Assembly: GCA_003056265.1 (NCBI GenBank) | Contig: NBVN01000002.1 | Coordinates: 210,001-242,000, forward strand | Reading direction: 5' to 3' | Origin: Zestosphaera tikiterensis | GTDB taxonomy: Archaea > Thermoproteota > Thermoprotei_A > Sulfolobales > NBVN01 | Length of the DNA: 32,000 bases | Part shown: positions 980 to 30,834 of the stretch, one piece after another | How the letters are laid out: each line of letters starts with the position of its first letter | Position numbering within the stretch: position 1 is the first letter of the stretch | The notes under the pieces: model-generated | Told to the model about the DNA's origin: nothing | Seen by the model: only the letters and a program-made list of their open reading frames with translations | Database searches by the model: none | Translations under genes and position numbers: made by a program

Positions 980-1056
<77 letters not shown>

Positions 1057-1126
1057 TCTAATGCTTTATTGAATTAAGGTTAATTAATTTTTCTGCTGAC
1101 GTAAGGTGTTTAAGCAAGTTAAAAAA

Positions 1127-1540: not shown

Positions 1541-1640
1541 GCCTCTCTACATCATGATTTTCATCGCAGGAGAGTTTATAAACTTATCCCCACATACGCT
1601 GAAGGCAATTAATTTATTCCCACACGCGGATATTAAGTAG

Positions 1641-2003
1641 GTGGATATAGTGAGTGATGTGAAAGTGGAGAAAGGTGGGCAGGCATACTTCATAAGGTTT
1701 CCAGACGGTAGTAAGGCTTGGCTAGCTTTTAAGGAGGAAGGTGGTAAGCTACACCTTATAGAGACTTACACACCAGAACAGCATAGGGGTAAGGGATATG
1801 CTGCGAAACTTGTTGAAGCTGCTGTGGAAGACGCTGAAAAACGAAATCTAAAGATAGTCCCTATCTGCAGCTACTCAGTTCATTACTTCATAAGAAATAA
1901 AGAGAAAAGACACTTACTGGACGAGCCTTACGCCTCAATGAGTGAGGAAGAACTTCAGAACTACTATAAAGAAAGACTAAACGCTGAGAAAAGCAAGCAT
2001 TAA
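1641..2003 (+). CDS. Small GNAT-like N-acetyltransferase (YjdJ-type single domain)
   Basis: 120 aa. HRGKGYAAKLVEAAVEDAEKRNLKIVPICSYSVHYF matches the acetyl-CoA binding R/Q-x-x-G-x-G/A core of minimal GNAT proteins. Its stop overlaps the convergent stop of the next gene (2000-2003). Confidence 0.6.
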   Translation: MDIVSDVKVEKGGQAYFIRFPDGSKAWLAFKEEGGKLHLIETYTPEQHRGKGYAAKLVEAAVEDAEKRNLKIVPICSYSVHYFIRNKEKRHLLDEPYASMSEEELQNYYKERLNAEKSKH

Positions 2004-3277: not shown

Positions 3278-3345
3278 CTTAATTCAAACCAACTATGACT
3301 AAGAAACTTAAAAGTTTCGTTATGAAGTATTAGGGGTAATTAAAG

Positions 3346-3762
3346 TTGAGCGATGATATAACGTATGAAGAGATGTTGAAGAGAGTGTATGAAAACCTGC
3401 CTGAGAGGAGGACAGCACCTACGTTGGATATCCCGCCTTTAGAGATAGCATACGTAGGCAATCAAACTCAAATTAAAAACTTCAAGCAGGTTTGCGACGT
3501 AATTCTTAGAGAACCTAAAGTATGTGCTAGGTATATCCTTAAGGAATTAGCTGCGAGAGGAACTATAGATGACTCAGGCGTTTTCACAATATATTTGAAA
3601 GTAACCGCTCAAACGATAAACGCTTTATTTAAGAAGTTCTTAGATATTTACGTGATATGCAAGACCTGCGGTTCTTACCAAACAGAACTGAGGAAGCAGG
3701 GTAAGGTATGGATAATTAGATGTTTAGCTTGCGGTGCTGAAACACCTACGAAGCCTGTGTAG
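3346..3762 (+). CDS. eif2b: Translation initiation factor aIF2 beta subunit
   Basis: 138 aa with a TTG start. The N-terminus YEEMLKRVYENLPE and the C-terminal zinc ribbon CKTCGS...CLACGA are typical of aIF2-beta. Confidence 0.9.
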   Translation: MSDDITYEEMLKRVYENLPERRTAPTLDIPPLEIAYVGNQTQIKNFKQVCDVILREPKVCARYILKELAARGTIDDSGVFTIYLKVTAQTINALFKKFLDIYVICKTCGSYQTELRKQGKVWIIRCLACGAETPTKPV

Positions 3763-4092
3763 GTGATCCATCTGACTGAAGATTTGGTTTACGTTAAGGT
3801 GCATAAAACGGAGGAAGACGAGAGCGGGTTTGGAAGTGTAGTTGCTGTATGCGATAAAGACTTGCTGGGTAGGACATTCAGAGAGAACGAAGTTATCCTC
3901 ACGATAAATGCTGAGTTCTTCGAGGGTTTCTTAACCACCTTAGATGAGGCTTTAGAGTATATTCGGAGGGCTGCTATAGCAGTACTCGTTGGTGAGAAAG
4001 CCGTAAGCAAAGCCGTCTCTGAAGGGTTAGTACACCCTGAAGCTGTTTTAACGGTTGAGGGAATACCACATGCTCAGATCGTGAAAGTATGA
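3763..4092 (+). CDS. DUF424-family protein, which is commonly found directly downstream of aIF2-beta in archaea
   Basis: 109 aa. The GTG start directly follows the aIF2-beta stop. The sequence VAVCDKDLLGRTF...INAEFF...G resembles DUF424. The stop overlaps the next start by 4 nt. Confidence 0.55.
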   Translation: MIHLTEDLVYVKVHKTEEDESGFGSVVAVCDKDLLGRTFRENEVILTINAEFFEGFLTTLDEALEYIRRAAIAVLVGEKAVSKAVSEGLVHPEAVLTVEGIPHAQIVKV

Positions 4093-5135
4093 AGTCCTTA
4101 ACGTCTAAATTTTGCTTAAGGTGTGGTTCGCCGGAAGGCCCGGATAACCCGCTGATTGAAGGCCTATGTTTAAATTGCTTTGTTAAGGAAAGGCAGATCG
4201 TTAAACTACCCTCTAAGGTAGTAGTTGTTAGGTGTTCTTCCTGCGGTTCAATATTCGTTGGGGGTACGTGGACGCAGTTTCTAGGTGATGACCGTCAAGC
4301 CCTAGAGGAAGTCATTAATAAAACATTCGTTAAGAAGCAAAACATCAACCCCAACATAAAAGACGTATACGTTGAAGTCGTAGGTCTTTATTCAGGGATG
4401 GCCGACTTAAAGATAACAGCCAGGTATGGGAATGCCGTCATCACGCAGAGTTCTGTAATCCATTACGAAATACTTAAGAGGATGTGCCCCTCATGTCTTA
4501 GCATTAAAGTAAAAAGCTATGAAGCGATACTTCAGGTTAGATTCGTTAGGAAGCAGAAATCTAGAGGGTTAGAGGTTATTAGAGTGAAGACATTCTTAAA
4601 TAACTTAAAGAACTTACGTAATAACGTAACAGACTATGAAGAATTGGTTGAGGGGATAGATATAAAACTTAACGATGTATCTATCGCTAGGCGCATAGCA
4701 AACACTTTAAAACGTGAGTTCGGTGGTGTTGTCAAAGAGTCTTGGAAGCTGCATACGGTCGTTCGAGGTAAGAGACACAGTAAGTTAACAATTTCCGTTA
4801 GGGTAGTTGGGGTTAAACCCGATGATTACTTAATAGTGGGGGATGAAGTCCTTAAAGTTCTTAACGTTGAGGGAAGTGAGTTAAGGGTTAAGCACTTAAG
4901 TAAGGACCTCGTTAAGTATGTAAAAATTGACGATTTAATGAAGGAAGACTTCGAGATAGTGCCGCCGGATGAAGCGAAAATAGTTTCATGTACTGTCGCA
5001 GGTTATGAAAGTGGGGGGCTTAAGCTCTCATGTGATGACGGCAGCTTTAGAATTGTTAGAAAGGTCCTGGAAACTTCCGTATCTTCGAAGGTGAAGATAT
5101 TAATTTATAAGGATAGTCATTATCTCATTTTATAG
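4089..5135 (+). CDS. nmd3: NMD3-family protein (archaeal homologue of the 60S export/biogenesis factor)
   Basis: 348 aa. N-terminal Cys clusters CLRCGS...CLNCF...CSSCGS and a later CPSC, with size and layout typical of archaeal NMD3. Confidence 0.75.
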   Translation: MKSLTSKFCLRCGSPEGPDNPLIEGLCLNCFVKERQIVKLPSKVVVVRCSSCGSIFVGGTWTQFLGDDRQALEEVINKTFVKKQNINPNIKDVYVEVVGLYSGMADLKITARYGNAVITQSSVIHYEILKRMCPSCLSIKVKSYEAILQVRFVRKQKSRGLEVIRVKTFLNNLKNLRNNVTDYEELVEGIDIKLNDVSIARRIANTLKREFGGVVKESWKLHTVVRGKRHSKLTISVRVVGVKPDDYLIVGDEVLKVLNVEGSELRVKHLSKDLVKYVKIDDLMKEDFEIVPPDEAKIVSCTVAGYESGGLKLSCDDGSFRIVRKVLETSVSSKVKILIYKDSHYLIL

Positions 5136-11865: not shown

Positions 11866-12591
11866 TTACGACGTAAGGAGTTTAGCTATTAAGTCAGTAG
11901 GTGTTAGAAGTGACGCTATATACCCCACCAAGTAGAAGACTATGTGTGGCAATCCCGGCGTCACCCAAACTATAAAATCATCACTCACTCTTTCCGCGTT
12001 AACTAACTCTCTAACTACGTTCTTAAGGCTTTCTTCGTAATTATCATCTAAAGTAAATGAAGCTCTACATCTGAAAGCATATCTCTCCATATCTTCAGGT
12101 ATTGTTAAAAGATATGTAAACTTACTTTTAAGAAATTGAGAAGCTTTAACAGCTTTTCCAAATACGTAAACCCCTACCTTACTTCCTTCTATACACGTGA
12201 GCCTTTTATACTGCTTTAAAAACCTTAAGTTATGAAGTAGGTTGTAGATTATTAACGCTAAAGGTGGTATTAAGGAGTAGATTAAAGTCATGAAGGTAAT
12301 TGGTTTAGGGTATATCCTAGGATGAGCTAATAACACGAAAGCCAACGCTAGGAAGTCAGCACCACCCATTAAGTCAAAAACAGAAAGAATTAAAACCATA
12401 AACACCGGCAATGCCGATATAATCAACTCAAGTAAGTTATAAGAGCCTTGAATTAAATTTAAAACAATAACCACAGCAAAGCCGGGCACCCAAGTAAGTT
12501 CTGGAACCTCCCTTGATCTGTAGTCTCTATAGGAAGCATACACCAACGTAGCTAAAACAGTAGCTATGATTAGAAAGTCCCATAAACCCAA
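11866..12591 (-). CDS. pibD: Archaeal type IV prepilin / preflagellin peptidase (A24 family, PibD/FlaK-like)
   Basis: 241 aa and polytopic. The first catalytic Asp context is ASYRDYRSREVP and the second is MGGADFLALAF. TTG start with a GGAGGA Shine-Dalgarno 7 nt upstream, inside the 18-nt gap after radA. Confidence 0.8.
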   Translation of the reverse strand: MGLWDFLIIATVLATLVYASYRDYRSREVPELTWVPGFAVVIVLNLIQGSYNLLELIISALPVFMVLILSVFDLMGGADFLALAFVLLAHPRIYPKPITFMTLIYSLIPPLALIIYNLLHNLRFLKQYKRLTCIEGSKVGVYVFGKAVKASQFLKSKFTYLLTIPEDMERYAFRCRASFTLDDNYEESLKNVVRELVNAERVSDDFIVWVTPGLPHIVFYLVGYIASLLTPTDLIAKLLTS

Positions 12592-13719: not shown

Positions 13720-15522
13720 GTGAAAGTTTTACTAATTCACGCGGAGCATTTTGAATTTAAAGCATTAAGTAAAGCCGTTAACGAGGCGGAGGAGCCAATC
13801 CTTAAGGAGTTTAACGGTAATAACGCATTAGTAATGTTTACCTCAGTAGAGTCTGGAGACCTTAACTCCTTAAGTAAGTTACTAAGCATGTTAATTGAGG
13901 ATATCGCAAACCTCCTGCAAACGTTAAAACCGGAATATCTCGTGATATATCCTTACGCGCATCTCTCCAAAGACTTAGCAAACCCTGCTGAAGCTTTGAA
14001 AGTCCTTAAGGGGATTGAAGAAGCAGTTAAATCTTCAGTTAAGGGGGTAAACGTCGTAAGAGCGCCTTTTGGGTGGTATAAGTCATTCACCATTAAATGT
14101 TTAGGCCATCCCTTATCGGAACTTTCACGTGAGTATAGAGTAGCTTTAGAGGCTAAAGAAGAAGTTAAACCAACTATCTTTAAATGCTTCATTATGAACG
14201 TTCAAGGAGATTTAATTGAAGTAACCGATGAGGAGTTTAAGGGACTTACCGAAGAGCCTATCCTAACCACTTACTGCCTTGAGAAGACATCGCTTAGTAA
14301 ATGGGTTTTAAAGCCTAGGCTTGAGGAGCTTTTCAAGAAGTTTGGCTATGTTTTAATACGTGATAAGTTAGGCGTTAGATTAGGTAAGGTTGGTCAAGCA
14401 TTACATGTGGATAGGTTATTAAGCAGTTTAAATGACGTGATTATTGAACGCCTTACTAAGGACAGTAACTTCACTAAAGTTGAAGTATCTTCATTAGGAT
14501 ATTCATTAAACATCGACAACGTAAGCGAGCCTTTAATCTTAACCGACGAAAAAGGTTTAAAATATGAGGTTTCAAACGACTCAATCCCTATCCACGCCCA
14601 TATATTGAAAGAATTACTGGGCGTCAAGCAAGTAAAACCGCCGCTTTTCATGTATGAGATAAAGCCTGTACTTAAGAAATCCAGCGAATTAAACTTTAGG
14701 GACTACCTAACAGCTTTAACTAAACCTCAATTTACGGCCGTCGTAGACGACTTAAGAAGTGGTTTGGATATAGTTAAAAACTTAGTTTTAGATTTAACTA
14801 CAGCTTTCAAAGATTTAAATCTCCTAGAAGATATGGTGGTCATTGCGGAAGTTTCAGACTTGAGTTTTAAAGAAGGTTTGCTAGAGCCTATACTACAAAC
14901 ATTGAGAAATCACAACGTTAAAGCTTTAATTAAAGTATCGCTTAAGGAAGGTTCGCTATGGGATTTCATAATCAGGTATGTCTACATAGACAGTAGTAAA
15001 TCGCCGACTGAGTTAAGTAAAACAGCGTTAACTTCCTCAATGAGTAGAGCGTTTAGGATTTCCTACTTTGATAAAGACAATAATCAAAGATATCCAGTAA
15101 TAATAACTTCAGACTTAATAGGGGCGCCGGAAGTATTGTTTTACGCCCTCTTAGATAAAGCACTTAAGTTTGAAGAGGAAGGTAAAACACCCTGTCTTCC
15201 TACGTGGTTAATGCCTACTCAAGTCATGGTGATACCTGTAACCGTTGAGAATCAAGAACTCGTTAACTACGCTAGCCTCATAGTAAGTAAGTTACGTGAA
15301 AATAGCGTTAGATCTGAGGTAGATTTAAGGAACGTAGGTTTAGGGAGGAAGATAAGGGATGCTGGTAAGGAATGGATACCGTTTATCGTAGTTGTTGGTG
15401 AAAGGGAAGTTAATACGACCACACTTAACGTAAGGGTAAGGTGTGAAGGAATTCAACATACTTTAACTTTAAATTCATTTATTGAGTTACTTAAAAAAGA
15501 AGTGAAAACACCATTTACTTAG
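13720..15522 (+). CDS. thrS: Threonyl-tRNA synthetase paralogue of the 'ThrRS-ed' type: archaeal editing domain + degenerate class II core + anticodon-binding domain
   Basis: 600 aa. The N-terminus MKVLLIHAEHFEF... is the archaeal ThrRS editing domain. The C-terminus PTWLMPTQVMVIPV...GRKIRDAGKEWIPFIVVVGEREV is the class IIa anticodon-binding domain. The middle lacks motif 2 (no FRxE / RVRGFxQDDxH) and has PVIITSDLIGAPEVL where PVMIHRAxxGSxERF is expected. Confidence 0.8.
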   Translation: MKVLLIHAEHFEFKALSKAVNEAEEPILKEFNGNNALVMFTSVESGDLNSLSKLLSMLIEDIANLLQTLKPEYLVIYPYAHLSKDLANPAEALKVLKGIEEAVKSSVKGVNVVRAPFGWYKSFTIKCLGHPLSELSREYRVALEAKEEVKPTIFKCFIMNVQGDLIEVTDEEFKGLTEEPILTTYCLEKTSLSKWVLKPRLEELFKKFGYVLIRDKLGVRLGKVGQALHVDRLLSSLNDVIIERLTKDSNFTKVEVSSLGYSLNIDNVSEPLILTDEKGLKYEVSNDSIPIHAHILKELLGVKQVKPPLFMYEIKPVLKKSSELNFRDYLTALTKPQFTAVVDDLRSGLDIVKNLVLDLTTAFKDLNLLEDMVVIAEVSDLSFKEGLLEPILQTLRNHNVKALIKVSLKEGSLWDFIIRYVYIDSSKSPTELSKTALTSSMSRAFRISYFDKDNNQRYPVIITSDLIGAPEVLFYALLDKALKFEEEGKTPCLPTWLMPTQVMVIPVTVENQELVNYASLIVSKLRENSVRSEVDLRNVGLGRKIRDAGKEWIPFIVVVGEREVNTTTLNVRVRCEGIQHTLTLNSFIELLKKEVKTPFT

Positions 15523-18829: not shown

Positions 18830-19717
18830 CTACTTCTTCAATTTCTTGATTAAGTGATCAACTATCTTAGGAGCTGGGTTAAGCCCCGTCCCAGCTAGAA
18901 AGCCTTGCCAGTTAGGCATAGCATTGACTTCGTAAACTACATACCCATCAGCAGACTCCCCAACATCAACGCCGGCGTAGTCTAGGTTTAAAGCTTTAGT
19001 TGCTTTAAGTGAGAGCTCCTCTAGCTCACTATCTACGTGAGCTTTTTCAACTTTCCCACCTTGGGATACGTTAGTTTTCCAGGTATGTTGGGGTCTATAC
19101 CTGTATATAGCGCCTAAAACCTCATCACCTACGACGAAAACTCTTATGTCTCTGTCGTAGCTTCTAACATACCTCTGAACTAGGAGGGGTTGACCATGTT
19201 CTAACCATGTTTTCCCTATGATATACGCTATATCGGGGTCTGTAACTAATAAGGATCCGTACCCCATACTACCTATGATCGGTTTGATGACGGCTTTCCC
19301 CCAACTCCTCACAATCTCTGACAGTGTGTAAACATCCTCTGTTAAGAGTGATTCGGGAACCCTAACTCCAACTTTAGTTAAGAGCTGTATAGCTCTAAAC
19401 TTATCTCTAGCATTCATTAAGCCTTGAGTTGAGTTAACTAACAACACGTTGTTTAATTCGAGCTGAACTAACGTGTTAAGACGTTTAAGTAAGGTCTCCA
19501 TAGAGGTTACGTTGCCTATGCCTCTTAATAGGGCACCGTCCAACTCCAGAACGTTTTCACGGCCGTAGAGAATCTTCGAAGCTCCATTAACAATCTTCGA
19601 GTTTAGTCTGGAGATCCTGATGTAAGAGGTTGTAATGCCTCTCCTAAGAAGCTCTACTAACAAATCCTTAGCTGTTTGAGGTGGTATTGGAGCGTCATGA
19701 ATTACCGCTACCTTCAT
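18830..19717 (-). CDS. RimK/LysX-family ATP-grasp ligase
   Basis: 295 aa. ATP-grasp features: NARDKFRAIQLL, VIKPIIGSMGYG, RDIRVFVVGDEV, YAGVDV...VYEVNAMP. Confidence 0.85.
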   Translation of the reverse strand: MKVAVIHDAPIPPQTAKDLLVELLRRGITTSYIRISRLNSKIVNGASKILYGRENVLELDGALLRGIGNVTSMETLLKRLNTLVQLELNNVLLVNSTQGLMNARDKFRAIQLLTKVGVRVPESLLTEDVYTLSEIVRSWGKAVIKPIIGSMGYGSLLVTDPDIAYIIGKTWLEHGQPLLVQRYVRSYDRDIRVFVVGDEVLGAIYRYRPQHTWKTNVSQGGKVEKAHVDSELEELSLKATKALNLDYAGVDVGESADGYVVYEVNAMPNWQGFLAGTGLNPAPKIVDHLIKKLKK

Positions 19718-19795
19718 ATTATTCTTCCTCTCAGTCTTTTAGTGTTATCCATAAATTTAAGTTACTTTATAGCTTTGATATTGAGTGAGTTCACG

Positions 19796-20782
19796 ATGAT
19801 GGAGGTTTGGGTATGGGCAGCGTTTTGTGGATTGCTAACTCCCCTCGCTACTTACGCTTTAATTAAGCTTGAACGTAAGGTTGGATTCCTCGCACCAGAC
19901 GTTCATAAACCCAACAAGCCTTTAATTCCTAGAACTTCAGGACCCGCTTTCTTAATTTCGACTTCCCTACTATTATTAACTGGTTATTTCTTCAATAATC
20001 CATACATAGTTATGCATTCACTAGCTTCTATAACAGCTGGTTTATTAGGACTTTACGACGACTTAAGAGGCTTAAACGCGTTTATGAAGGTTGCTTTATT
20101 TACTGTTCCAGGCTTAATAATCGCTTTAGGCGGTGTTTTCGACCCACATCCCTACATACCAGTAGTGGGTGGGGTTAGAATAACCATACTCTACCCTTTA
20201 CTGTTAATAGTTGCCTACACAGTAATCACGAACGCGTATAACATGATCGACACACATAACGGCATAACGCCGTTCGTAGCTTTAATAACCGCTATAGCTT
20301 TGCTAATATCTACGAATATGAACGGACCTTCGCCGTTACCGGGCGGGTTATCAATAACAGCTTTCGTAATCATTGCGTTACTTACATACCTACCTTTCAA
20401 TTTATATCCAGCTAAGATATTCAATGGAAATACTATGTCATTCATGATCGGCTCTTTAATAGCTTCCCAAGCTATACTTCTAAGGAGGGAATTCCTACTT
20501 ATAATGCTATCAGCACCGTTAATACTTAATGGATTCGGCATAATCTCAAGCATTAAAGGATTTAAAAATAAGGAAGCCATCCCTAGGCCTGTAACTTTAA
20601 CAAGCGAATTTAAGTTAAAGCCTTCAAAGAACGTTAACGCACCAATCACTCTTGTTCAGCTCCTAACCCTTAGTAAACCGTTAAGTGAGAAAGAACTCAT
20701 CATAGCCTACTACGCCTTAATTGTTATTAATGCCGTAACTTCTTTAGCGTTGTATCAGGTCTTAAGTTCACTACATATATGA
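19796..20782 (+). CDS. Glycosyltransferase family 4 polyprenyl-phosphate HexNAc-1-phosphate transferase (AglH/WecA-like)
   Basis: About 10 TM segments and the motif NAYNMIDTHNGI (NxxNxxDGxDG-like). The track ORF starts at TTG 19676, but that overlaps the divergent RimK gene by 42 nt. I prefer the in-frame ATG-ATG at 19796/19799. Confidence 0.8.
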   Translation: MMEVWVWAAFCGLLTPLATYALIKLERKVGFLAPDVHKPNKPLIPRTSGPAFLISTSLLLLTGYFFNNPYIVMHSLASITAGLLGLYDDLRGLNAFMKVALFTVPGLIIALGGVFDPHPYIPVVGGVRITILYPLLLIVAYTVITNAYNMIDTHNGITPFVALITAIALLISTNMNGPSPLPGGLSITAFVIIALLTYLPFNLYPAKIFNGNTMSFMIGSLIASQAILLRREFLLIMLSAPLILNGFGIISSIKGFKNKEAIPRPVTLTSEFKLKPSKNVNAPITLVQLLTLSKPLSEKELIIAYYALIVINAVTSLALYQVLSSLHI

Positions 20783-20816: not shown

Positions 20817-21689
20817 TTAAAGATTAACTTCAATTAATAGTTCATCGACAATGTCCCTATATCTGTTTCTTAGAGTTACTTCGGTTACCTCAAGCTTTTC
20901 TGAGATTTCCGTTTGCGTTTTCTTTATGTTGAGTAAAACCGAAGCCACATATAATGAGGCGGCGGCAACCCCCTTAGGCCCCTTACCTGATGTAATGCCT
21001 TCCTTCTTAGCCGTTAAAGCTAGTTTAAAGGCTAGCATTTTAGCTGGTGGCGGCGTGTTTATTTTATGAGCGAATTGCTCTACATACTTTAAGGGATCTA
21101 CTACACCCGTTTTTATTTGTTCCCCCGAATCTCTACTTATCTTAAGGCGTGCTTTCCATACGTCTTGAGCCGTTACTTGACAATGTTCGAGTACGACCCT
21201 ACTGTCTACAGGCATGTTTAAATTCTTTAACGTTGTTATAAGAACAGCGGCAACCATCGCCCTTAAGTTCTTCCTTTTTATCACACCTCTCTTATATAGC
21301 CTACGGATAATATTACCAGCTACATTCTTCAAATCGTCTTTATTAGGTACGTCAAGTTTATTAACGGTTTCATTCATAAGCTTTAAAGCTTGAACAACCC
21401 TCTTCTCTTTAGAGCCTATTCTAAGCTTTTGATTGAGGCTCTTCAACTTACGTCCGTACACGGATCTAGCCTCTATCTCCGTGTGAAGTCCTAAGTCATG
21501 AACCTTACTAGTTATTGGTGTGCCTCCCCTAACCCTACTTTCGATGTCGTTAACTTCAGGAAAACGCCATTCAGGTGTTAAAACAGGCTCCCTCTCCTCT
21601 AGGACTTCCCCTGTCTCTACACATATGTACTCACCGCGAAACTCGTCGTATATGATGGACTCCGCTGGGCATTCAACCACGACAATCAC
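20817..21689 (-). CDS. tfb: Transcription initiation factor TFB
   Basis: 290 aa. The N-terminus reads ECPAESIIYDEFRGEYICVETGEVLEE...TPEWRF (ribbon/B-reader region), followed by two cyclin-fold repeats. Confidence 0.9.
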   Translation of the reverse strand: MIVVVECPAESIIYDEFRGEYICVETGEVLEEREPVLTPEWRFPEVNDIESRVRGGTPITSKVHDLGLHTEIEARSVYGRKLKSLNQKLRIGSKEKRVVQALKLMNETVNKLDVPNKDDLKNVAGNIIRRLYKRGVIKRKNLRAMVAAVLITTLKNLNMPVDSRVVLEHCQVTAQDVWKARLKISRDSGEQIKTGVVDPLKYVEQFAHKINTPPPAKMLAFKLALTAKKEGITSGKGPKGVAAASLYVASVLLNIKKTQTEISEKLEVTEVTLRNRYRDIVDELLIEVNL

Positions 21690-22341: not shown

Positions 22342-22481
22342 ATCCGCGAAGGCTACTACATCGTACCTATTAAATAAAACATCAAAGCTTTAAAACAAGT
22401 ATTCACTCACAACAATATAATCGCTTGAAACAGTACATGATTAACATTTTATTTACCTTCGTTGAATTAGGGTAAGCATAA

Positions 22482-22856
22482 ATGCGTGTGTTTAAAGTCA
22501 AAGGAATTAGTGAGTTAACTATCGACTTACTCTTTATGATGTTAATGCTATCTATCTCCAGCGTAGTTTTCTACTCCTTAACTTACATCTACGGTAAAGA
22601 ACTTCAAGAAGACACGCCTGAATACTTCCGCATAAGCACAGAAGTTCGGGTGGTTAAGCTAATTGGGAAAGAATTTAAATTAGCTGTGATTTGGTCTACT
22701 GACGACAAGTTACATACTGTAGAAATTATTTGTGGAGGCGTAACCCGTGTAGTTCAATTAAGACCTTATGACGTCGTCATAGAAAGGATCGGTGACGACA
22801 TAACCCTCTTTTTTGCTGACGGTACGTTAGTACCTATTGAGGAGGTGTTTCTATGA
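22482..22856 (+). CDS. Small protein with an archaeal class III (type IV pilin-like) signal peptide; a candidate pilin
   Basis: 124 aa. MRVFKVKG|ISELTIDLLFMMLMLSISSVVFY has a basic N-terminus and a K-G cleavage context, then a hydrophobic helix followed by ~90 aa of beta-rich sequence. Confidence 0.55.
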   Translation: MRVFKVKGISELTIDLLFMMLMLSISSVVFYSLTYIYGKELQEDTPEYFRISTEVRVVKLIGKEFKLAVIWSTDDKLHTVEIICGGVTRVVQLRPYDVVIERIGDDITLFFADGTLVPIEEVFL

Positions 22857-24925
22857 ATAACAAAGCTTCAGGATCAACAATCTTAGGCGTGATACTCTTC
22901 GCATTAATATTACTTACGTCTTTTTCATATATAGCAATATACTCACGAACGTCAACCCAGGAAAGTAGGGAGGCGTTGATGGATGAATATAAGCTGTTGA
23001 AGAAATCGTTAAATACCATCGTGTTTTTTACGTTAAGTGAGGAAGGGCTTTACATAAACGTGAATAAACCACCTCTAAAGTTAGTTGAAGTCGTCGCCTT
23101 AAAAAACGATGGAACCACAACGTATTTGAATAAGAGGGCTTTAATCAACACTACTAGATATCTCTTAATAGACGATACGTCTTTAAAGAACATATTAGCG
23201 TCTTTTGATAAACTCCTTATTTTAACTGATGTGGATTCGTATATGTTGAGTAAAGAATACATAGAGTCTTTAAACAAACCTTCAAACGTTAAGGGAATGG
23301 AATTTAATGAGATAACTTCATATTCGGCGTTGAGACCTTATGTAATCATCGGTGCTTTAAAAACACAACGAGAAACTTTCCTCGTAAATCCAGTCCCCGG
23401 CTCTTTATCAGATACGGAAGCTACTTACGTACCTATAGCTGTAGTTGAGCTTAATAAGAGCGTAGTAAACGTAATTAAGTCTTCTACTAATGGATGGTTT
23501 ATAGGTTATTACGGGAGGGGAGATCCCTCACCAGGTACGGGAGTTGGGGATCCTACATATGTTATGGGATGGCTTAAATATGAGTATCAACCAGCGTTTA
23601 AAATTAACGCAACCCATTGGATTGAACAACGTTATTCATCAGGTCTTTACCCTGTAAACTACTACTACTGGTATGTCGGGACTGCCGGAATTTACTTAGT
23701 TCCTGTTATAATCAGCCCTAACACTACCTCCTTAATAAACTTTTATTTCTCCATTAGCAGGTTGTCAGGCCCTACACTCTACGTTAAACCAGTAGTCTTT
23801 ACGATCACTCTGGAGTCTTTCTTAAGGTCTAAAATCCCAGTTAAAATCTCTGATGTTATGACAGAGCCTACGTTAAGTTATAATGTAGCGTTGGCATATT
23901 ACACATGGTTTGGCTCAACATACGTTATAGATACGCGATCACAATCAACAACGTTTACAGTTACAGCAAACCCGCAAACAATCTATACGCACTTCCCAAG
24001 CTATAAAGGTTTTTTAGCGATTTTAATAGGTTTTACCTTTGTTTGCGGTAATGTAAACGCTTATAATCACGTAGGCGATCCAACAATATTTAGCGTGCTT
24101 AACATACCATTAGGTATTACGGTAGATTTAAATGAGGCAAATCTAGATTTAATTCTAGGTTTGACTTCTACTAACATATATCCGTCAATTCAAGGACTAT
24201 CGACTTATAAACTATTTAATCTAAACAACAACCCGAGATATTTAGGCGTTATTAACGTCTCAGGCATGAACTCATTTAAAATAACTTACACCTTAGGCAC
24301 CACGACATCATTATCGAATTATACGTTAACAACTCTATACGATAGCAATCCCGTCAACTCATATAAAACACAAAACGTTCGAGAAGTTAGTTCTTTCAAC
24401 GGTACGTACGCGTTATATGACGCGCAGAATCTACGTATATATAGTAAAAACTTCTACGTTAACGCGTGGGCTAGTTACGGCGGTGGTAGTAATAATCCAA
24501 ATCAATGGTGGTCAGTCGAATTAACTTCACTAGATCCAGATACAAGCATATATCTATATGTAGAACTTAGGGACAGTGCGGGTTTCCTTATGACTACCAA
24601 GGCTTACGTCCTAGACGGTGGTGGATCTATTAGCGATACCTACGTATACTCAGGTTTAAACTTTGCCTATTACTACTACATTCAGTTGAGTTTTGACTCA
24701 ACAAACAAGAAACTTATTCTTAGAGGTGGTGTTTACACATCATCGGGTTATGCTTACGGCGATTTTCGATACTACGTATACTTAGGTAAGAAATTCACTA
24801 AGCTTTCAGACAACGGTTTATTCATAACTTATTCCTATATCGCTAAAAACTTTAAAGTTGCTATCATAGATTTAAACGTTGTTAATGTAGCATCAGTTAA
24901 ACCCAATTCTTTTGTTATAACTTAA
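22853..24925 (+). CDS. Large secreted or surface-anchored Tyr/Asn/Thr-rich protein with an N-terminal pilin-like or signal-anchor helix; no domain recognised
   Basis: 690 aa. Its ATG overlaps the upstream stop (ATGA), and a GAGGAGGTG Shine-Dalgarno sits at 22839-22847. The N-terminus is MNNKASGSTILGVILFALILLTSFSYIAIY. There are at least 7 N-x-S/T sequons and aromatic runs (NYYYWY, AYYYYIQ). Confidence 0.7.
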   Translation: MNNKASGSTILGVILFALILLTSFSYIAIYSRTSTQESREALMDEYKLLKKSLNTIVFFTLSEEGLYINVNKPPLKLVEVVALKNDGTTTYLNKRALINTTRYLLIDDTSLKNILASFDKLLILTDVDSYMLSKEYIESLNKPSNVKGMEFNEITSYSALRPYVIIGALKTQRETFLVNPVPGSLSDTEATYVPIAVVELNKSVVNVIKSSTNGWFIGYYGRGDPSPGTGVGDPTYVMGWLKYEYQPAFKINATHWIEQRYSSGLYPVNYYYWYVGTAGIYLVPVIISPNTTSLINFYFSISRLSGPTLYVKPVVFTITLESFLRSKIPVKISDVMTEPTLSYNVALAYYTWFGSTYVIDTRSQSTTFTVTANPQTIYTHFPSYKGFLAILIGFTFVCGNVNAYNHVGDPTIFSVLNIPLGITVDLNEANLDLILGLTSTNIYPSIQGLSTYKLFNLNNNPRYLGVINVSGMNSFKITYTLGTTTSLSNYTLTTLYDSNPVNSYKTQNVREVSSFNGTYALYDAQNLRIYSKNFYVNAWASYGGGSNNPNQWWSVELTSLDPDTSIYLYVELRDSAGFLMTTKAYVLDGGGSISDTYVYSGLNFAYYYYIQLSFDSTNKKLILRGGVYTSSGYAYGDFRYYVYLGKKFTKLSDNGLFITYSYIAKNFKVAIIDLNVVNVASVKPNSFVIT

Positions 24926-25151: not shown

Positions 25152-25718
25152 ATGTCTGTAAAAAAACGATTTATACCTGTCTCAGAAGACATCGTTTTTG
25201 AATTGGGTAGGATCGCTGAACGTGTAGGCATACCTATACCTGAACTTACTGAAAGAATCTTGAAAGAGATAACGAGAGCCTTCAAATATAGAGGTGATAT
25301 ACTGAAGATGTTAGTTAACGTTGACGCTGTGGAGGATTTACGGCGTTTAGGGTGTGTTGTACTTCCGTCAAATGTAACGTTTGAAGTTGTTGACAACTTA
25401 GATGAAAACGCTTTCAACCGCGTTGTTGAAGAGCTTAAGAGATCTGCTGCTTGGTATGGTGAGTTAGCTAAGGTGAAAAGAGGTAAGGATGTAGATGAGT
25501 TCGTTAGGGTTTTAAGTTTATGGTTGCCAATAGCTAACATCGACGTTGTTGAGTTAGGTGACGGTAGGTTTAAAGTAGTGGTTTCGATATTTAGCCGATC
25601 TAATAGACTATCTAAAATAGCTGAGGTTATCGTGCGTGAATTGCTTAAAGCGTTAGAATATAACGTAATAGATTTTGAGTCTAGAGATGGGGTAATAGTC
25701 ACAACGTTGGAGGAATAA
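25152..25718 (+). CDS. Ribbon-helix-helix (CopG/Arc-like) N-terminal domain protein with a ~140-aa C-terminal domain, paralogue A
   Basis: 188 aa. RFIPVSEDIVFELGRIAERVGIPIPELTERILKEI fits beta-strand / helix / G-x-x turn / helix. A TAGGTG Shine-Dalgarno is present. The long antisense ORF on the minus strand is Ser/Thr/Leu-rich and looks spurious. Confidence 0.6.
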   Translation: MSVKKRFIPVSEDIVFELGRIAERVGIPIPELTERILKEITRAFKYRGDILKMLVNVDAVEDLRRLGCVVLPSNVTFEVVDNLDENAFNRVVEELKRSAAWYGELAKVKRGKDVDEFVRVLSLWLPIANIDVVELGDGRFKVVVSIFSRSNRLSKIAEVIVRELLKALEYNVIDFESRDGVIVTTLEE

Positions 25719-25722
25719 AGTC

Positions 25723-26274
25723 ATGACTGGCCGGCGGAACGTAGCTATAGATGTAAGCATAGTCAGCGAGTTAAAGAATATAGTCGCTAAAAAAGGTATG
25801 AGTTTAACTTCATATCTAAGGTCTTTACTTACCGAAGCTTTAAGACTTGAAGCTAAAGGTTTACACGCTCCTAAAGCACTTAAGGATGCTGAGTTAGTGT
25901 ATGTTCTCAGGAACTTTAAGTTTATCTTAATCCCTTTAGAAGTTGTCGAAAATAACATACGTATAGATGAGGAACTGCTTAAGAACTCAAGGGAATACGG
26001 CATACGCATCGGGAAAGTCTTAAAGGAATTAGGCATAGACATCTCTGAAACTATAGACTACCTACTGCATGATGTGCCCACCACACCTTTAGGTAAAGAT
26101 AAAATAATAATACTACCGACGCAAGGAACGAGTAGAGTCCTTATAGAGTTAGCTAAAGGTATAGCTGAAGGGGGAGGCTTAAAAGTAAGTGAAACCCCGC
26201 ACACCGCCGTAATAGAGTTTAATAAATCTTTAGAACAAACACAGCAACGTAAAACGTCGGGAAGGTCGTTCTAA
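25723..26274 (+). CDS. Ribbon-helix-helix N-terminal domain protein, paralogue B
   Basis: 183 aa. NVAIDVSIVSELKNIVAKKGMSLTSYLRSLLTEAL is a textbook RHH with a G-x-S turn. A GGAGGA Shine-Dalgarno is present. The start lies 4 nt after the stop of paralogue A. Length and domain order match paralogue A. Confidence 0.6.
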   Translation: MTGRRNVAIDVSIVSELKNIVAKKGMSLTSYLRSLLTEALRLEAKGLHAPKALKDAELVYVLRNFKFILIPLEVVENNIRIDEELLKNSREYGIRIGKVLKELGIDISETIDYLLHDVPTTPLGKDKIIILPTQGTSRVLIELAKGIAEGGGLKVSETPHTAVIEFNKSLEQTQQRKTSGRSF

Positions 26275-26386: not shown

Positions 26387-27106
26387 TTATTTAATTGGAG
26401 TGCGTATTGAAGTTTTGTCTTTTAAGTACCCGTCTATTAAGTTTAAGGATCTATCCATAAAGTCCATCAACCGTGGATCGTGAGTAACTAGAATGATCGT
26501 TGTTTTAAAGTCTTTCTTGATACTCTTAAAGAGCTCTAAAACTTTAAGAGCGGTATCCCAATCTAGGTTTGCTGTAGGTTCATCCGCGAGAAGTACTGAT
26601 GGAGTCATCACCAACGCTCTAGCTATGGCTACCCTCTGCCTCTCACCACCACTTAATCTTTTAGGGTAGGAACTCGCTTTATTAAGCATGCCTATATACT
26701 CGAGAACTTCCTTCACCTTCCTCTCTCTTTCTTCCTTACCTACGCCAGCTATTAAAAGAGGTAACTCAACGTTCTCAAATACTGTAAGCTCATCTATCAC
26801 TCCGTAGTCTTGAGGGATATAACTCACTACGGTGTTTCTTATCATGGCTAAACCTAAGTCGTCAAGCATGTTTAGATTATACCCATCTACGATTACCTCA
26901 CCTCTATCAGGCCTTACAAAACCAGCTATGATTTTTAAGAGCGTGGTTTTTCCGGAACCGCTAGGTCCATGAATACCTACTACCTCACCTCTGAAGAAGT
27001 TCACGTTTATATTCCTTAACACCACTACCTTATAATTACCTTCGTCATACGTCTTCCACACATCCCTTAAAGCAACCACAACATCGCCCGGGATCAGCAT
27101 CACCAA
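26387..27106 (-). CDS. ABC transporter ATP-binding protein (MacB/LolD-like subfamily)
   Basis: 239 aa. Motifs: Walker A GPSGSGKTT, signature LSGGERQRVAIARAL, Walker B LLADEPT, H-loop VTHD. The ATG at 27100 (preceded by GGTG) may be the true start rather than TTG 27106. Confidence 0.9.
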   Translation of the reverse strand: MVMLIPGDVVVALRDVWKTYDEGNYKVVVLRNINVNFFRGEVVGIHGPSGSGKTTLLKIIAGFVRPDRGEVIVDGYNLNMLDDLGLAMIRNTVVSYIPQDYGVIDELTVFENVELPLLIAGVGKEERERKVKEVLEYIGMLNKASSYPKRLSGGERQRVAIARALVMTPSVLLADEPTANLDWDTALKVLELFKSIKKDFKTTIILVTHDPRLMDFMDRSLNLIDGYLKDKTSIRTPIK

Positions 27107-27128
27107 CTTAAACTAAGTTTCAAAGGGG

Positions 27129-27548
27129 TTAAATCTGCGGTATGGACGCACTGCTTCGAATTCTAATGTAAATATGGTTTAAAGACGTGAAAAAAGTTGT
27201 TAAAGCGATTAAGAACGCTATAGGGCTGTATGCATCTAAGAAGATCACATAAGGTATTGAAAGAAGTGTTGAGTTTACAAATGAGATTAATAACAGAAGT
27301 AGTCTTATGTCTTTAGGTTTTGAACCACACATGTAGAGTACGTATATAGTTGATGCGTGAAGTTTAAAATCGATAAACACGGAAGCTAGGGAAGCTACAG
27401 ATATAAGCGCTAACGTAAGGAAGGCTATAAAAAGAGAATTAGATACCAACAGAAGCAAAGCTAGATTTACCGCTACAGCTAAACATGTTTTAGCACCTAC
27501 GCTTCTAGCTATTAACTTCTTAACTAACGTCAGTACGTAGATTCCCAA
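27129..27548 (-). CDS. Small 4-TM membrane protein, possibly a minimal FtsX-like subunit
   Basis: 139 aa with a TTG start preceded by AGGTGGTG. It overlaps the upstream gene by 19 nt. The loop CGSKPKDIRLLLLLI resembles the G-x-x-xx-I/L loop between FtsX-type helices. Confidence 0.5.
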   Translation of the reverse strand: MGIYVLTLVKKLIARSVGAKTCLAVAVNLALLLLVSNSLFIAFLTLALISVASLASVFIDFKLHASTIYVLYMCGSKPKDIRLLLLLISFVNSTLLSIPYVIFLDAYSPIAFLIALTTFFTSLNHIYIRIRSSASIPQI

Positions 27549-29125
27549 ACCTTAACACCACCTACGATTTTAGATATGACTAGCGAGTTAATGCTTAAGC
27601 TCATAGACTCTGAGATCTCCTCCACCCCAAACACGGAAGTGTTTATGTTGATGTGTGCGAACCCCTCTTCAACGTTAATGAATACCGTTAAGTCCACACC
27701 AGAACCCCAAGAATCTACGTAAAGCATCTTAGCATGTATTACAGCCTCCTTATTAGAGTCGATCTTATACTCTACCTCCTCCACGTCGAAGAATTCATTA
27801 CTTTTTATTAAGTGAACTATCGCGTCAACTAACCTACTTATATCCTCACACTTAATTATCACGGTATACCTAGTGGTTGGCGGTATGTAAGACTCACTAG
27901 CTAAGCTTTCGGGCCTTGCCTTCAAATTCACGTAGATTGTTGATGCTAACCAAACTACAACTAAAGTTAATAAGGAGTTAAATGCTGCGGTACCGCCGTA
28001 GATTAAGTAAACGTAAATTAAAGTAATTACGCCAGGGAAAAACATGGAAGTAGCTGTATAGCTAGTTAACACTATCGATATTGCCCAAGGCGGAAAGCCT
28101 AAATAACTTATCTTATCTCTTAAATCCCTTACATAAGGTATCGCTGAAGAGAAAACCGATAACGTTATTAACGACGCCGTCGCTGACGTAATTAAAGCTA
28201 CAACCACAGACTTAAGCGATGGGATCTTAGTGTTGGACACTATAACTACTCTACCATACTCTATGAGCCTAACTTCAAATATGTCGTAATCCGCGCTTAA
28301 CCCCTCATAAAAATCTAAAACGTTAAGTTGATCTGACTCTACGCCTCTAATAAGTACATCAGTAACTAACTCTTCATGTGTTTCGAAAAGCTTCATTAAA
28401 TTCTCTGTGGTTGTGATTAAAACGTACCTAGTGGGTATCGTCACAGGTTCTGTTCCTATGAAAGCTTGAATAGGTATTAAAGGGACTTTATACGTTATAT
28501 ACGTTGCTGAAAGTTTTGCGGGATCTACGTAAACTAAGTTGATTTGCGTTCTATGGTTGTCGTATATTAACGTATCACGCATTGTCGCCGTATTTAAATC
28601 CGCGTAGGCATACACGTCTTCATGAAAGTCAACATTCAGTAATGAACTTAAGAAACGCTTATCTGAGGATATTAAGCAATAGATGTTTTTATTTATGCTT
28701 AACAGCTTATACGGCGTTTCTAAGGTTATCCTATAAAACCTTAAGCATTCGTTAAAAGATCCTATAGATTGCTTTATACGCGAGCAAATATCCGCAGTTA
28801 CCGGCTTGTTGAACTTAACGTATATCTCACGCGTTTTAGATGTTAAAGTAGGGTCTTTCAATTCAACGTAACTACTTTCAGCACTTGATGAAAAACCAGC
28901 TATTGTTACAGCTAAAACTAAAGTCGCTATTATGACATAGGTGAAAGGTTTACTAAAGAGCAATATGCTAATTCTATACATACCGACAAACCTTGAAAGC
29001 CTGGCTTTCACCTTAACTTTAAATTCCCTGCTTCTTTCAGTTTCTACTATCGTATAACGTATAGCTACGTAAGCTAATGCTAAAGCGATAGCGACGCTTA
29101 CGACTAGGAAGTATAAGTAAATCAT
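27530..29125 (-). CDS. FtsX-like ABC permease with a large extracytoplasmic domain and an extra ~125-aa soluble C-terminal domain
   Basis: 531 aa. It has two N-terminal TM helices, then ~230 aa of non-hydrophobic sequence. Three TM helices follow around VRDLRDKISYLGFPPWAISIVL (FtsX-like loop). After them comes a soluble tail, TRYTVIIKCEDISRLVDAIVHLIKS...GVKVWESTY. Confidence 0.55.
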   Translation of the reverse strand: MIYLYFLVVSVAIALALAYVAIRYTIVETERSREFKVKVKARLSRFVGMYRISILLFSKPFTYVIIATLVLAVTIAGFSSSAESSYVELKDPTLTSKTREIYVKFNKPVTADICSRIKQSIGSFNECLRFYRITLETPYKLLSINKNIYCLISSDKRFLSSLLNVDFHEDVYAYADLNTATMRDTLIYDNHRTQINLVYVDPAKLSATYITYKVPLIPIQAFIGTEPVTIPTRYVLITTTENLMKLFETHEELVTDVLIRGVESDQLNVLDFYEGLSADYDIFEVRLIEYGRVVIVSNTKIPSLKSVVVALITSATASLITLSVFSSAIPYVRDLRDKISYLGFPPWAISIVLTSYTATSMFFPGVITLIYVYLIYGGTAAFNSLLTLVVVWLASTIYVNLKARPESLASESYIPPTTRYTVIIKCEDISRLVDAIVHLIKSNEFFDVEEVEYKIDSNKEAVIHAKMLYVDSWGSGVDLTVFINVEEGFAHININTSVFGVEEISESMSLSINSLVISKIVGGVKVWESTY

Positions 29126-30834
29126 TAAGCAACACCTATCAATGAAAGCGTCACAGATAATGCGACGCCTAACCCAGCACCGGCTAACGCTAACGAAGCG
29201 TAGGTTATTAAGGATTCGTAAACGTCTACACCTATGCGGTACGCGACATATTTGATCAGTGAAGCAACTATGAAAAGTAACCCTAAATCTGGGGTTAACG
29301 TAGCCCCTATTAGTATGCCGAAGAATGACACACCTGAAAGACCGAGGAACTTCATCAAGAATATGAATGCTATAGCGAATAAAGCCCCTATTAAGACTGT
29401 ATATGTGTTAAACGCTGAGATATCCCCCTTATAGAGGTTGTTCATCCACGTCACTACTGGAACCCAACGAAGTAAGTTAAGCTTAGGTGAGTTTAAACCG
29501 AAGACTGAAATTAGTATGTAACCGTAGATGAGCGTTATTGGCGCACCTAAAACCGCGAATAAAGCAGGTATAAACGTTGAAACCTCAGCCCTAACATCTA
29601 ATACCTTACCTGCCTTAACATAGTTGAGGGTGTTAGCAGCGAAAAACTGCGGCATGGGGACTCCCGTGTAAGGATCTAGAAATATATAGGGTATAGCTCC
29701 TCTAGCGCCGCTTGCGAAAAGCGTTAAGGTCGCTACCGGCAACGTAGCTTGTGAAACCGTGCCAACCTCACCGGCAACTCTAGCTGTTAATATAGTTAGA
29801 AAGAACTGAAGCAAAATTATCAAAGGTATGGCTAATAAAGCTGTTAAAGGTAGGTCTGTAAGCAGTAAAACCGGAACGACGGCTGTAATCATTAAAGCTA
29901 ACGCCATTAAAACGTAGCGGAGGAGATATTTACTTATGTATACATACCTAAAAGTAGATATCAAGTATCTCCTACTGACGATTATGTAGTAGCTGGAGAA
30001 CACGATTAAGAACCCACTTATTAATGAGGATATTAAAGGTGAGGCCGCCGTAGCTAAAGCTTTAGAATCCATCGTAGGTAATGAAATCATCAACCCAAGA
30101 GTGGTTAATATAGGTGTTATTACGAAATACGTCACCACATTGCCTATACCAACACCTACGGATGTGTTTAAAGGTATCAGTAGAGCTAGAAGTAAGACGA
30201 AGATATCCATGGATAAAGCAATTGAAGAACCTGGAAGTATTGTCTGCAACTGAGGCGTTGGATCTACGGAGAAACCTCCAGTTAGCGATGAAATCAGCTG
30301 TATTGCAGCACCCCCTAAAACCGTTATTAAAACATACTCGCGTTTTAACGCCTTACCCAACTGTATAACCCTAGCTATTGAAGAGCCTATAGGGTACGCT
30401 AACTTCTCCTTCTCAACAAAGTGTTTATAAAAGACGTAAGCAATGATAGAGCCTGAAACTGAAATGGAGGTCGCGTACGTGAAGAACGCAATAGTTTCTA
30501 TGCTTAAGTAGCTGTTGTGATACGCCCATGAAGGAATTCTTAAAGAACTCACGTCCCCTAACTCGTGAAGCATCGTATAAGTTATATACATGCCGGCCGT
30601 TATAGTTGTGGATATAGCTATTCCTGAAGCGATTAAAGAACCTATGAAATGCTCTACAGGCGTGGGGGACTTTCTAAATATTAGCTTATACAGGATTAAA
30701 TACATAATAGCAGCAACAACCCCAGCTATCTCAGCTGTCGTATAGCCAGTTACGGCATATCCATATGTATCGATAAACCCTTGAAGTAAGCCCGTTAAGA
30801 AGCCTAAGATTAAAGCATTTACTAACTTACTCAT
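29125..30834 (-). CDS. OPT-superfamily (oligopeptide transporter-like) polytopic membrane transporter
   Basis: 569 aa with about 15 TM segments. The N-terminal LILGFLTGLLQGFIDTYGYAVTGYTTAEIAGVVAAIM and the mid-protein ARVAGEVGTVSQATLPVATLTLF resemble OPT family blocks. The stop overlaps the next start (TAATG). Confidence 0.6.
   Translation of the reverse strand: MSKLVNALILGFLTGLLQGFIDTYGYAVTGYTTAEIAGVVAAIMYLILYKLIFRKSPTPVEHFIGSLIASGIAISTTITAGMYITYTMLHELGDVSSLRIPSWAYHNSYLSIETIAFFTYATSISVSGSIIAYVFYKHFVEKEKLAYPIGSSIARVIQLGKALKREYVLITVLGGAAIQLISSLTGGFSVDPTPQLQTILPGSSIALSMDIFVLLLALLIPLNTSVGVGIGNVVTYFVITPILTTLGLMISLPTMDSKALATAASPLISSLISGFLIVFSSYYIIVSRRYLISTFRYVYISKYLLRYVLMALALMITAVVPVLLLTDLPLTALLAIPLIILLQFFLTILTARVAGEVGTVSQATLPVATLTLFASGARGAIPYIFLDPYTGVPMPQFFAANTLNYVKAGKVLDVRAEVSTFIPALFAVLGAPITLIYGYILISVFGLNSPKLNLLRWVPVVTWMNNLYKGDISAFNTYTVLIGALFAIAFIFLMKFLGLSGVSFFGILIGATLTPDLGLLFIVASLIKYVAYRIGVDVYESLITYASLALAGAGLGVALSVTLSLIGVA

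Follow-up and report, generated by a model that had tools for sequence, protein, structure and literature searches.

A conserved gene pair encoding candidate prepilin-like surface proteins in Zestosphaera tikiterensis and related Desulfurococcaceae-type genomes

Two overlapping genes were examined on a 32,000-nucleotide stretch of the Zestosphaera tikiterensis genome (assembly GCA_003056265.1, contig NBVN01000002.1, positions 210,001 to 242,000 of the forward strand), hereafter the window, in whose coordinates positions are given unless a relative's locus is named. The genes encode proteins of 124 and 690 amino acids (aa), hereafter the small and the large protein, and we read them, with moderate confidence, as a new lineage-restricted family pair of prepilin-like cell-surface proteins located in a cell-envelope island. 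Their cleavage, complex formation, surface exposure and function we infer. The original prediction, made from the letters of this stretch, proposed looking for relatives among the Thermoproteales, which was wrong: Z. tikiterensis belongs to the Desulfurococcales.

The small gene (22482-22856, + strand; PUA33286.1, B7O98_02315, identical protein) and the large gene (22853-24925, + strand; PUA33287.1, B7O98_02320) both begin with ATG, and the NCBI annotation lists both products as hypothetical. The stop codon of the first and the start codon of the second overlap as ATGA (22853-22856), and a Shine-Dalgarno sequence, GAGGAGGTG (22839-22847, + strand), lies 5 nt before the ATG of the large gene, within the final codons (IEEV) of the small gene. 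The two reading frames, their overlap and the strong Shine-Dalgarno had all been described in the original prediction, and our coordinates agree. These are genuine, translationally coupled genes. The codons for the conserved C-terminal I-E-E-V of the small protein are the very ones that form the Shine-Dalgarno of the large gene (22839-22852), so part of that protein conservation may reflect a constraint at the nucleotide level. Upstream of the pair, a putative TATA box, TTTTATTTA (22447-22455, + strand), and a Shine-Dalgarno-like GGG (22470-22472, + strand) were recognized by their recurrence in relatives: in every lineage inspected, TTTTTAA or TTTTATTTA was located 25-35 nt 5' of the small gene and was followed by GGG(G), even where the small gene directly follows the ATP-binding cassette (ABC) ATPase gene described below. 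The pair thus appears to be one co-translated unit under what is probably its own promoter. At codon 108 of the large gene (23174-23176), the window and the NCBI protein encode aspartate, while a variant from a Logan assembly (P0001) encodes asparagine; this substitution is the sole change between them and adds an N-T-S sequon.

The pair was recovered in 17 distinct lineages, always in the order small then large, and always with the genes overlapping or no more than 4 nt apart. Downstream of the close relatives of the small protein (94, 77 and 60 % identity), a homologue of the large protein overlapped the small gene in each case. With the large protein as query, HMMER found only four distant full-length relatives (20-28 % identity, 667-687 aa) among 1.8 billion representative proteins; an open reading frame (ORF) of 124-131 aa precedes each of the four. 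A scan of GTDB genomes with the single large protein found no homologue, and a word-index search with the 690-aa protein or with a profile of six sequences found only the query protein itself; further lineages came from scanning genomes with a neighbouring gene as seed and metagenomes with the small-protein motif as seed. Loci recovered in relatives are designated by L-numbers (L009, L010 and so on). Ratios of non-synonymous to synonymous substitution rates (dN/dS) against relatives were 0.17-0.35 for the small gene and 0.15-0.34 for the large gene, indicating purifying selection on both. Because of the recurring order and spacing in 17 lineages, together with dN/dS of 0.15-0.35, we conclude that the pair is a real, conserved and narrowly distributed unit; it was seen only in Desulfurococcaceae-type genomes. 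A check of conservation and synteny in relatives had been proposed with the original prediction, and it turned out well for the pair, which recurred in these lineages, in most of them with shared neighbours.

Both N-termini look like class III (prepilin-type) signals, not cleavable Sec signals. The small protein opens with MRVFKVKG followed by ISELTIDLLFMMLMLSISSVVFY, which would place the cleavage site between K7-G8 and I9; the large protein opens with MNNKA followed by SGSTILGVILFALILLTSFSY (that is, MNNKA/SGSTIL), with the putative site between K4-A5 and S6. Each protein has a single hydrophobic segment on the Kyte-Doolittle scale, N-terminal and 22 residues in length. The Lys-Gly of the small protein and the basic/small residues of the large one before a hydrophobic helix, from which prepilin-like N-termini had been predicted for both proteins, are indeed present, and neither N-terminus looked like a plain Sec signal or transmembrane anchor, the reading that would have told against the prediction. 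Among the genuine genes of the window, these two alone fitted a simple class III pattern in which [KR][GA] occurs among the first 30 residues and precedes 20 hydrophobic ones. The N-terminal motif of the large family has been retained despite only 17-25 % identity between orthologues: in all of the orthologues, at least 13, a leader of 3-8 residues (often just M-K/R-G) ends in [KR][GA] directly before the hydrophobic domain (H-domain), and every H-domain opens with [STAM]-x-S-[TAV]-[LMI], as in MKG/SLSTLT, MRG/TLSTLTAAL and MKA/SLSTMS. The large family conforms to the archaeal class III rule, G, A or S at position -1 and a charged residue at -2 (PMC4371748), and on sequence grounds class III processing of the large protein is well supported. 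In the small family, the helix starts with G-[IV]-S-E-[LI]-x-[VI]-D, within which S-E-x-x-x-D is invariant (S10, E11 and D15 in the H-domain of the window protein), and Gly occupies position -1 in 13 of 14 sequences. The early acidic residue recalls E5 of bacterial pilins (PMC4371748). The presumed processing enzyme, a PibD/FlaK-type prepilin peptidase, is encoded at 11866-12591 (- strand; Peptidase_A24, E = 1e-9; Arc_PepC_II, E = 5e-13), at about the 10 kb distance at which the original prediction had placed such a gene.

The predicted architecture of both proteins fits a pilin-like build. Alignment and an AlphaFold2 (AF2) model suggest that the small protein consists of the leader MRVFKVKG, the H-domain and an immunoglobulin (Ig)-like beta-sandwich; the model, built on an alignment of four close sequences, has a helix at residues 11-42 and seven strands at 55-123, with a predicted local distance difference test score (pLDDT) of 66 overall and 72-83 in the sandwich. 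The large protein would consist of the leader MNNKA, the H-domain and a beta-rich ectodomain of about 640 aa; its model, a poor one built on an alignment of five sequences, has a 45-residue helix (9-53) followed by all-beta domains. The N-terminal helices have low pLDDT in both models and, at 32-45 residues, are predicted to be far longer than one membrane span. L, S, T, Y and N are abundant in the large protein, which contains exactly seven N-X-S/T sequons, all in the ectodomain, in keeping with its earlier description as a Tyr/Asn/Thr/Ser-rich protein with at least seven; the small protein contains none. A motif conserved in the large family, NP[VI]PG..EA[NT]Y[VE]P, spans residues 179-194.

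Several results weigh against reading the pair as prepilin-like. Although the residue at -2 is charged in about 10 of the 14 small proteins, it is S, T or L in about four, which makes PibD cleavage of the small protein doubtful; class III processing of this protein must be considered uncertain. The simple [KR][GA]-plus-hydrophobic pattern was also found in two polytopic families of the neighbouring operon (139 and 569 aa) and is thus not specific by itself. No match to either window protein was found in Pfam, NCBIfam, PHROGs or the PDB sequences, no member of the two families (14 small, 13 large) matched Pfam, and profile searches of the PDB with both families came back empty. Confidence in the model of the large protein is low (mean pLDDT 51). 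Foldseek searches of the PDB gave no match at E <= 0.001 for either model, only generic carbohydrate-binding-module, Ig and jelly-roll sandwiches; the best archaeal pilus match to the small model, 8fk7_A, was not significant (E = 0.2), and an archaeal S-layer protein appeared in the list for the large model at E = 0.08. Similarity to pilins or archaellins was thus looked for by profile and by fold and was found by neither, and the earlier statement that the large protein has no recognizable fold signature stands. A T2SSE/FlaI/PilB-type ATPase or a FlaJ/TadC-type platform protein was sought by comparing every ORF of at least 90 aa with Pfam, and none was found in the window; the precomputed Pfam annotation of four relatives (L008-L011) likewise showed neither of these gene types at a distance of up to 10 kb from the pair. 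The synteny of the pair with its neighbours, described below, may reflect common descent.

A number of other identities were considered for the two proteins and rejected. The large protein belongs to no solute-binding protein family (Pfam and NCBIfam for the window protein, Pfam for 13 family members), its family has no SlaA-like or SlaB-like Pfam match and its anchor is N-terminal, which sets it apart from S-layer proteins, and it matched no described glycosidase family; S-layer, solute-binding and glycosidase families were those that the original prediction had singled out as telling against it. The Tafi identity was rejected on membership tests along with AbpX/TasA, S-layer and solute-binding identities, and a viral origin of the pair was rejected for want of any match in PHROGs. 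A stretch of 36 residues in the large protein (NNPNQWWSVEL...) resembles P0011, whose sequence contains eight F5/8 type C domains; orthologues do not share the motif, so the resemblance is a weak lead and no such domain was assigned. The small protein showed no relation to the N-terminal domain of the large protein in a profile-profile comparison.

The distance of the pair from pilus genes has to be seen against what is usual in archaea. In Sulfolobus solfataricus, 20 of the 28 proteins positive in FlaFind have no known role (PMC4371748); stand-alone pilin genes are established in archaeal type IV pilus systems, and large proteins with signal peptides have been read as minor pilins or adhesins in those of crenarchaea (PMC4858521). 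Orphan pilin-like genes are common, and in archaea standing alone is the rule. The description of the pair as an orphan was accurate in that no pilus genes lie alongside, and inaccurate in that the pair sits in a conserved neighbourhood of ribbon-helix-helix (RHH)-like genes and an ABC operon; likewise, the absence of nearby machinery is true of type IV pilus machinery and otherwise fails, given a conserved ABC-type operon 1.5 kb downstream. The idea of a minor pilin with a tip adhesin retains the class III-like N-termini and the lack of any other family in its favour, and lacks a profile or fold link to solved pilins. The further suggestion of a previously undescribed filament is pure speculation.

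If the pair is what we propose, a reconstruction of its path to the cell surface is as follows. Both proteins would be inserted via Sec with the N-terminus inside, and the PibD-type peptidase encoded 10 kb upstream would trim the short basic leaders MRVFKVKG and MNNKA. Through their hydrophobic N-terminal helices, the two proteins would then stay anchored as a complex of about 1:1, either in the membrane or in a short pilin-like stalk. The 124-aa protein, a helix plus an Ig domain, would serve as a minor-pilin-like base or adaptor, and the N-glycosylated, all-beta 690-aa protein would be the exposed, fast-evolving part, of the adhesin or envelope-protein type. The island around them also holds two RHH-like putative regulators and a LolD/FtsE-type ABC operon, to which relatives add S-layer and glycosylation genes.

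The genes following the pair are conserved with it. Two soluble proteins with weakly RHH-like N-termini are encoded immediately downstream, one of 188 aa (25152-25718, + strand), with orthologues beside the pair in L007, L010, L029, L030, L041 and L056, and one of 183 aa (25723-26274, + strand), a putative regulator and likewise a conserved neighbour of the pair. They are paralogues (hhalign E = 6.7e-6) with a C-terminal domain unassigned to any family, and the two genes adjoin the pilin-like pair in most lineages, in either orientation. In a PDB search, the N-terminal 45 residues of the 183-aa protein were weakly like NikR (E = 0.09), AvtR (0.18) and Arc (0.78), and the protein also gave weak matches to CopG and RelB; sequence and profile searches of the PDB with the 188-aa family gave no match.

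Beyond these genes lies an uncharacterised four-gene operon (26387-30834, - strand) that is invariant across loci from 43 Desulfurococcales/Ignisphaera species genomes. Its first gene (29125-30834, - strand) was identified by orthology and hydropathy and encodes a 569-aa polytopic membrane protein with the highly conserved motif GFIDTYGYAVTGYTTAE. The second (27530-29125, - strand) encodes a 531-aa membrane protein which, judging from hydropathy and orthology, begins with two transmembrane segments, which are followed by an ectodomain of about 220 aa, another three segments and a soluble tail of about 130 aa; this FtsX/MacB-like topology fits an FtsX permease with an extra N-terminal transmembrane segment and a C-terminal domain added. 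None of 14 members of the 531-aa family matched Pfam FtsX, and the family had no match in NCBIfam or the PDB. The third gene (27129-27548, - strand) encodes a 139-aa protein with about four transmembrane segments, again from hydropathy and orthology. The hypothesis that it is a truncated paralogue of the 531-aa protein was dropped, the hhalign match (E = 0.023) not being significant; this non-significant match fell on the loop that joins hydrophobic segments three and four of the 531-aa family. Pfam and the PDB gave no match to any of the three membrane proteins. The last gene (26387-27106, - strand) encodes an ABC ATPase (PF00005, E = 1.7e-35) of the LolD/FtsE/MacB/MJ0796 subfamily; its best NCBIfam models were LolD (E = 1.4e-62) and FtsE (E = 1.5e-59), both below the equivalog cut-offs, and its best PDB matches included 5xu1 (pneumococcal MacAB-like), YtrE, MJ0796, LolD and FtsE as well as the oligopeptide/dipeptide-type ATPases Rv1281c and DppD.

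All eight genes (the pair, the RHH-like paralogues and the operon) are orthologous between the window and L009/L010, and collinearity between the window and L010 extends to the region around them (DUF1614, AsnC, RimK, GT4). Thirteen lineages had contigs long enough to be informative; in 12 of them the pair was found no more than 7 kb from the operon, and at least three arrangements occurred: directly downstream of it (L009, L010, L021, L029, L057-L059), divergently upstream of it (L030, L041), or about 6 kb downstream behind inserted AFOR genes (L032, L033, L044, L053, L055). In the window, the pair is inverted relative to the operon and 1.5 kb away. When a search was seeded solely with the small-protein motif, the operon adjoined five of the six new loci. 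The association has exceptions in both directions: at least 12 operon loci with 5-10 kb of flanking sequence on both sides lack the pair, including those of the sister clade of the window (L012-L017), and in L056, which has the pair, the 4.2 kb upstream and the 7.8 kb downstream contain no operon.

S-layer-like genes, with a weak SlaA-like Pfam match and a SlaB-like partner, were found beside the pair in L010 (13401-18070), L029 (18200-21702) and L030 (3-1139), and directly after the ABC gene in L027, L028 and L052; those genes of the relatives are not present in this window. In relatives, SlaA-like/SlaB-like genes occupy the slot that separates the ABC operon from an NTP-transferase gene, with or without the pair. 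Considering the probable promoter of the pair itself, the operon loci that lack it, the wider collinearity and the S-layer genes in the same slot, the best reading of the region is a cell-envelope island in which the pair is one variable occupant. A functional link between the pair and the ABC operon is possible, gene order being the one thing that points to it.

That link defines the most serious competing explanation, to which we assign a distinctly lower probability: that the adjacent LolD/FtsE-type ABC system has the pair as its extracytoplasmic partner or substrate, with no PilB/PilC-type machine involved. The anchored proteins would then work with a mechanotransmitting ABC machine, or be extracted or positioned by it, on the model of MacA with MacB, EnvC with FtsEX, or class III solute-binding proteins with ABC importers. 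The recurrent proximity in 12 of 13 informative lineages despite several arrangements, the encounter with the operon at five of six loci found by the small-protein motif, an ATPase of the subfamily that drives MacB/FtsX/LolCE-type permeases and the matching topology of the 531-aa protein all favour such a partnership, and the bindosome (bioRxiv 10.64898/2026.04.22.720090) provides a precedent for class III-signal proteins encoded beside ABC transporters. However, the pair keeps its own putative promoter even directly after the ATPase gene; at least 12 well-flanked operons, those of the sister clade L012-L017 included, do without the pair, and the pair of L056 does without the operon over the distances given above; the 531-aa and 139-aa proteins match FtsX or MacB in neither Pfam nor the PDB, nor each other significantly by hhalign; and S-layer genes fill the same slot elsewhere, so that the neighbourhood may be a mere cell-envelope island, with gene order as the sole link between pair and operon. 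A bolder version, in which the ABC machine pulls out, positions or assembles the prepilin-like proteins into a surface structure, seems improbable to us. On that view, the invariant Glu/Asp of the small-protein helix could pair with the permease or with the amine newly exposed at the N-terminus of the large protein; if true, pilin-like surface structures would be made by a route so far undescribed, and this in an organism that hosts a nanoarchaeal ectosymbiont.

Another explanation, in our judgement an unlikely one, is that both are ordinary bitopic membrane proteins of type II whose signal anchors stay uncleaved and which are unconnected with pilins or PibD, with the K/R-G/A dipeptide reflecting nothing but the positive-inside rule and helix capping. 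It would account for the lack of sequence or fold similarity to any pilin, the variable -2 position of the small protein, the occurrence of the same simple pattern in polytopic proteins of the neighbouring operon and the lack of pilus machinery nearby. It does not readily account for [KR][GA] being fixed before the H-domain in 100 % of large orthologues at about 20 % identity, for the near-invariant Gly at -1 and the invariant, pilin E5-like acidic residues early in the helix of the small protein, or for predicted helices whose 32-45 residues exceed a membrane span. Very improbable, finally, is that the large protein is an S-layer or S-layer-anchoring component, or belongs, as subunit, tip or anchor, to a fibre other than type IV (thread, bundling pilus, AbpX/TasA-like). 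S-layer-like genes do adjoin the pair in three relatives (L010, L029 and L030), an archaeal S-layer protein is in the Foldseek list of the large model, and an AbpX (TasA-like) locus with minor and tip subunits has been reported in Z. tikiterensis itself (bioRxiv 10.64898/2026.01.04.697558). That locus, however, comprises A0A2R7Y7T0, A0A2R7Y9R0 and A0A2R7Y7S4, whereas the pair is A0A2R7Y727 and A0A2R7Y7B5, and it depends on signal peptidase I (SPase I) and DUF5305 genes, neither of which the Pfam scan found in the window. The large family lacks SlaA-like or any other S-layer Pfam matches and has no cleavable signal of Sec or Tat type. Its anchor is at the N-terminus, whereas that of SlaB is a C-terminal transmembrane helix.

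Apart from the island, the surroundings in the window are of a housekeeping kind: aIF2-beta, aIF1A, NMD3, RIO kinase, GlnA, RadA, a ThrRS-like protein, TFB, Gar1 and SRP19. The ThrRS-like protein (600 aa; 13720-15522, + strand) has the archaeal ThrRS editing and anticodon-binding domains, with no Pfam match to a catalytic core at E <= 0.01; it is presumably the editing half of a split crenarchaeal ThrRS. An AglH-type GT4 ORF (19676-20782, + strand) overlaps the start of a RimK-like ATP-grasp gene (18830-19717, - strand) by about 40 nt, and GT4 and RimK-like genes also neighbour the ABC operon in L009 and L010. In L009, positions 1-4759 hold an inverted duplication of GT4 and RimK_N-like genes (copies at 466-1467, - strand, and 2832-3833, + strand; and at 1611-2171, + strand, and 2128-2688, - strand), possibly an assembly palindrome. 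A TFB-like gene with a Zn ribbon and only one TFIIB repeat is located two genes upstream of the pair (20817-21689, - strand); TFIIB homologues are listed among possible regulators linked to type IV pili (Makarova et al. 2016, PMC4858521).

An orphan pilin-like pair as such will not surprise specialists; it is the sharp motifs, the uncharacterised ABC operon and the organism's place as host of a nanoarchaeon that add weight. Most predicted archaeal class III-signal proteins have no known role, and this pair, which defines two families absent from Pfam and NCBIfam, offers with its N-terminal motifs a clean test case for the substrate rules of PibD. According to St John et al. (2019), as cited in PMC10117864, the ectosymbiont Nanoclepta minutus has Z. 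tikiterensis as its cultured host; because of this, a fast-evolving host protein that is probably glycosylated and exposed is a reasonable candidate for cell-cell contact or virus attachment. The four-gene ABC operon is perhaps the more valuable by-product, as the variable slot beside it, holding S-layer genes or the pair, points to an envelope function.

Among known systems, the stand-alone archaeal class III-signal proteins (Szabo 2007; Makarova 2016, PMC4858521) share with the pair a short basic leader with K/R at -2 and G/A at -1, a helix of about 20 residues, a beta-rich ectodomain with sequons, fast evolution, a PibD-type peptidase in the genome and genes located away from those for a pilus ATPase or platform. 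The pair differs from them in having no profile match to any pilin or archaellin family, in a small partner with S-E-x-x-x-D that is often uncharged at -2, and in being obligate and translationally coupled, with an ABC-type operon and RHH-like genes, not pilus genes, as neighbours. The substrates of the Sulfolobales bindosome (GlcS, AraS, TreS) likewise combine a class III N-terminus with a large non-filament ectodomain, an ABC system beside and BasEF-type machinery far off; unlike them, the large protein has no solute-binding domain, and the ATPase next to the pair is of LolD/FtsE/MacB type rather than that of an importer, with no importer permease pair. With the type VII ABC systems (MacAB, FtsEX-EnvC, LolCDE), the neighbourhood has in common the ATPase subfamily, a permease-like subunit with a large ectodomain between transmembrane helices and adjacent genes for N-terminally anchored extracytoplasmic proteins, whereas an FtsX/MacB domain is undetectable in Pfam or the PDB, the 569-aa polytopic protein is an addition, and the pair, linked to the operon by gene order only, has no fusion-protein or coiled-coil features. 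The archaellum stators FlaF and FlaG consist of an N-terminal hydrophobic helix and a small beta-sandwich. The small protein has no archaellin or FlaF/FlaG profile match and no archaellum genes lie near the pair, yet its predicted helix and small beta-sandwich, about 120 aa in total, are built along the same lines.

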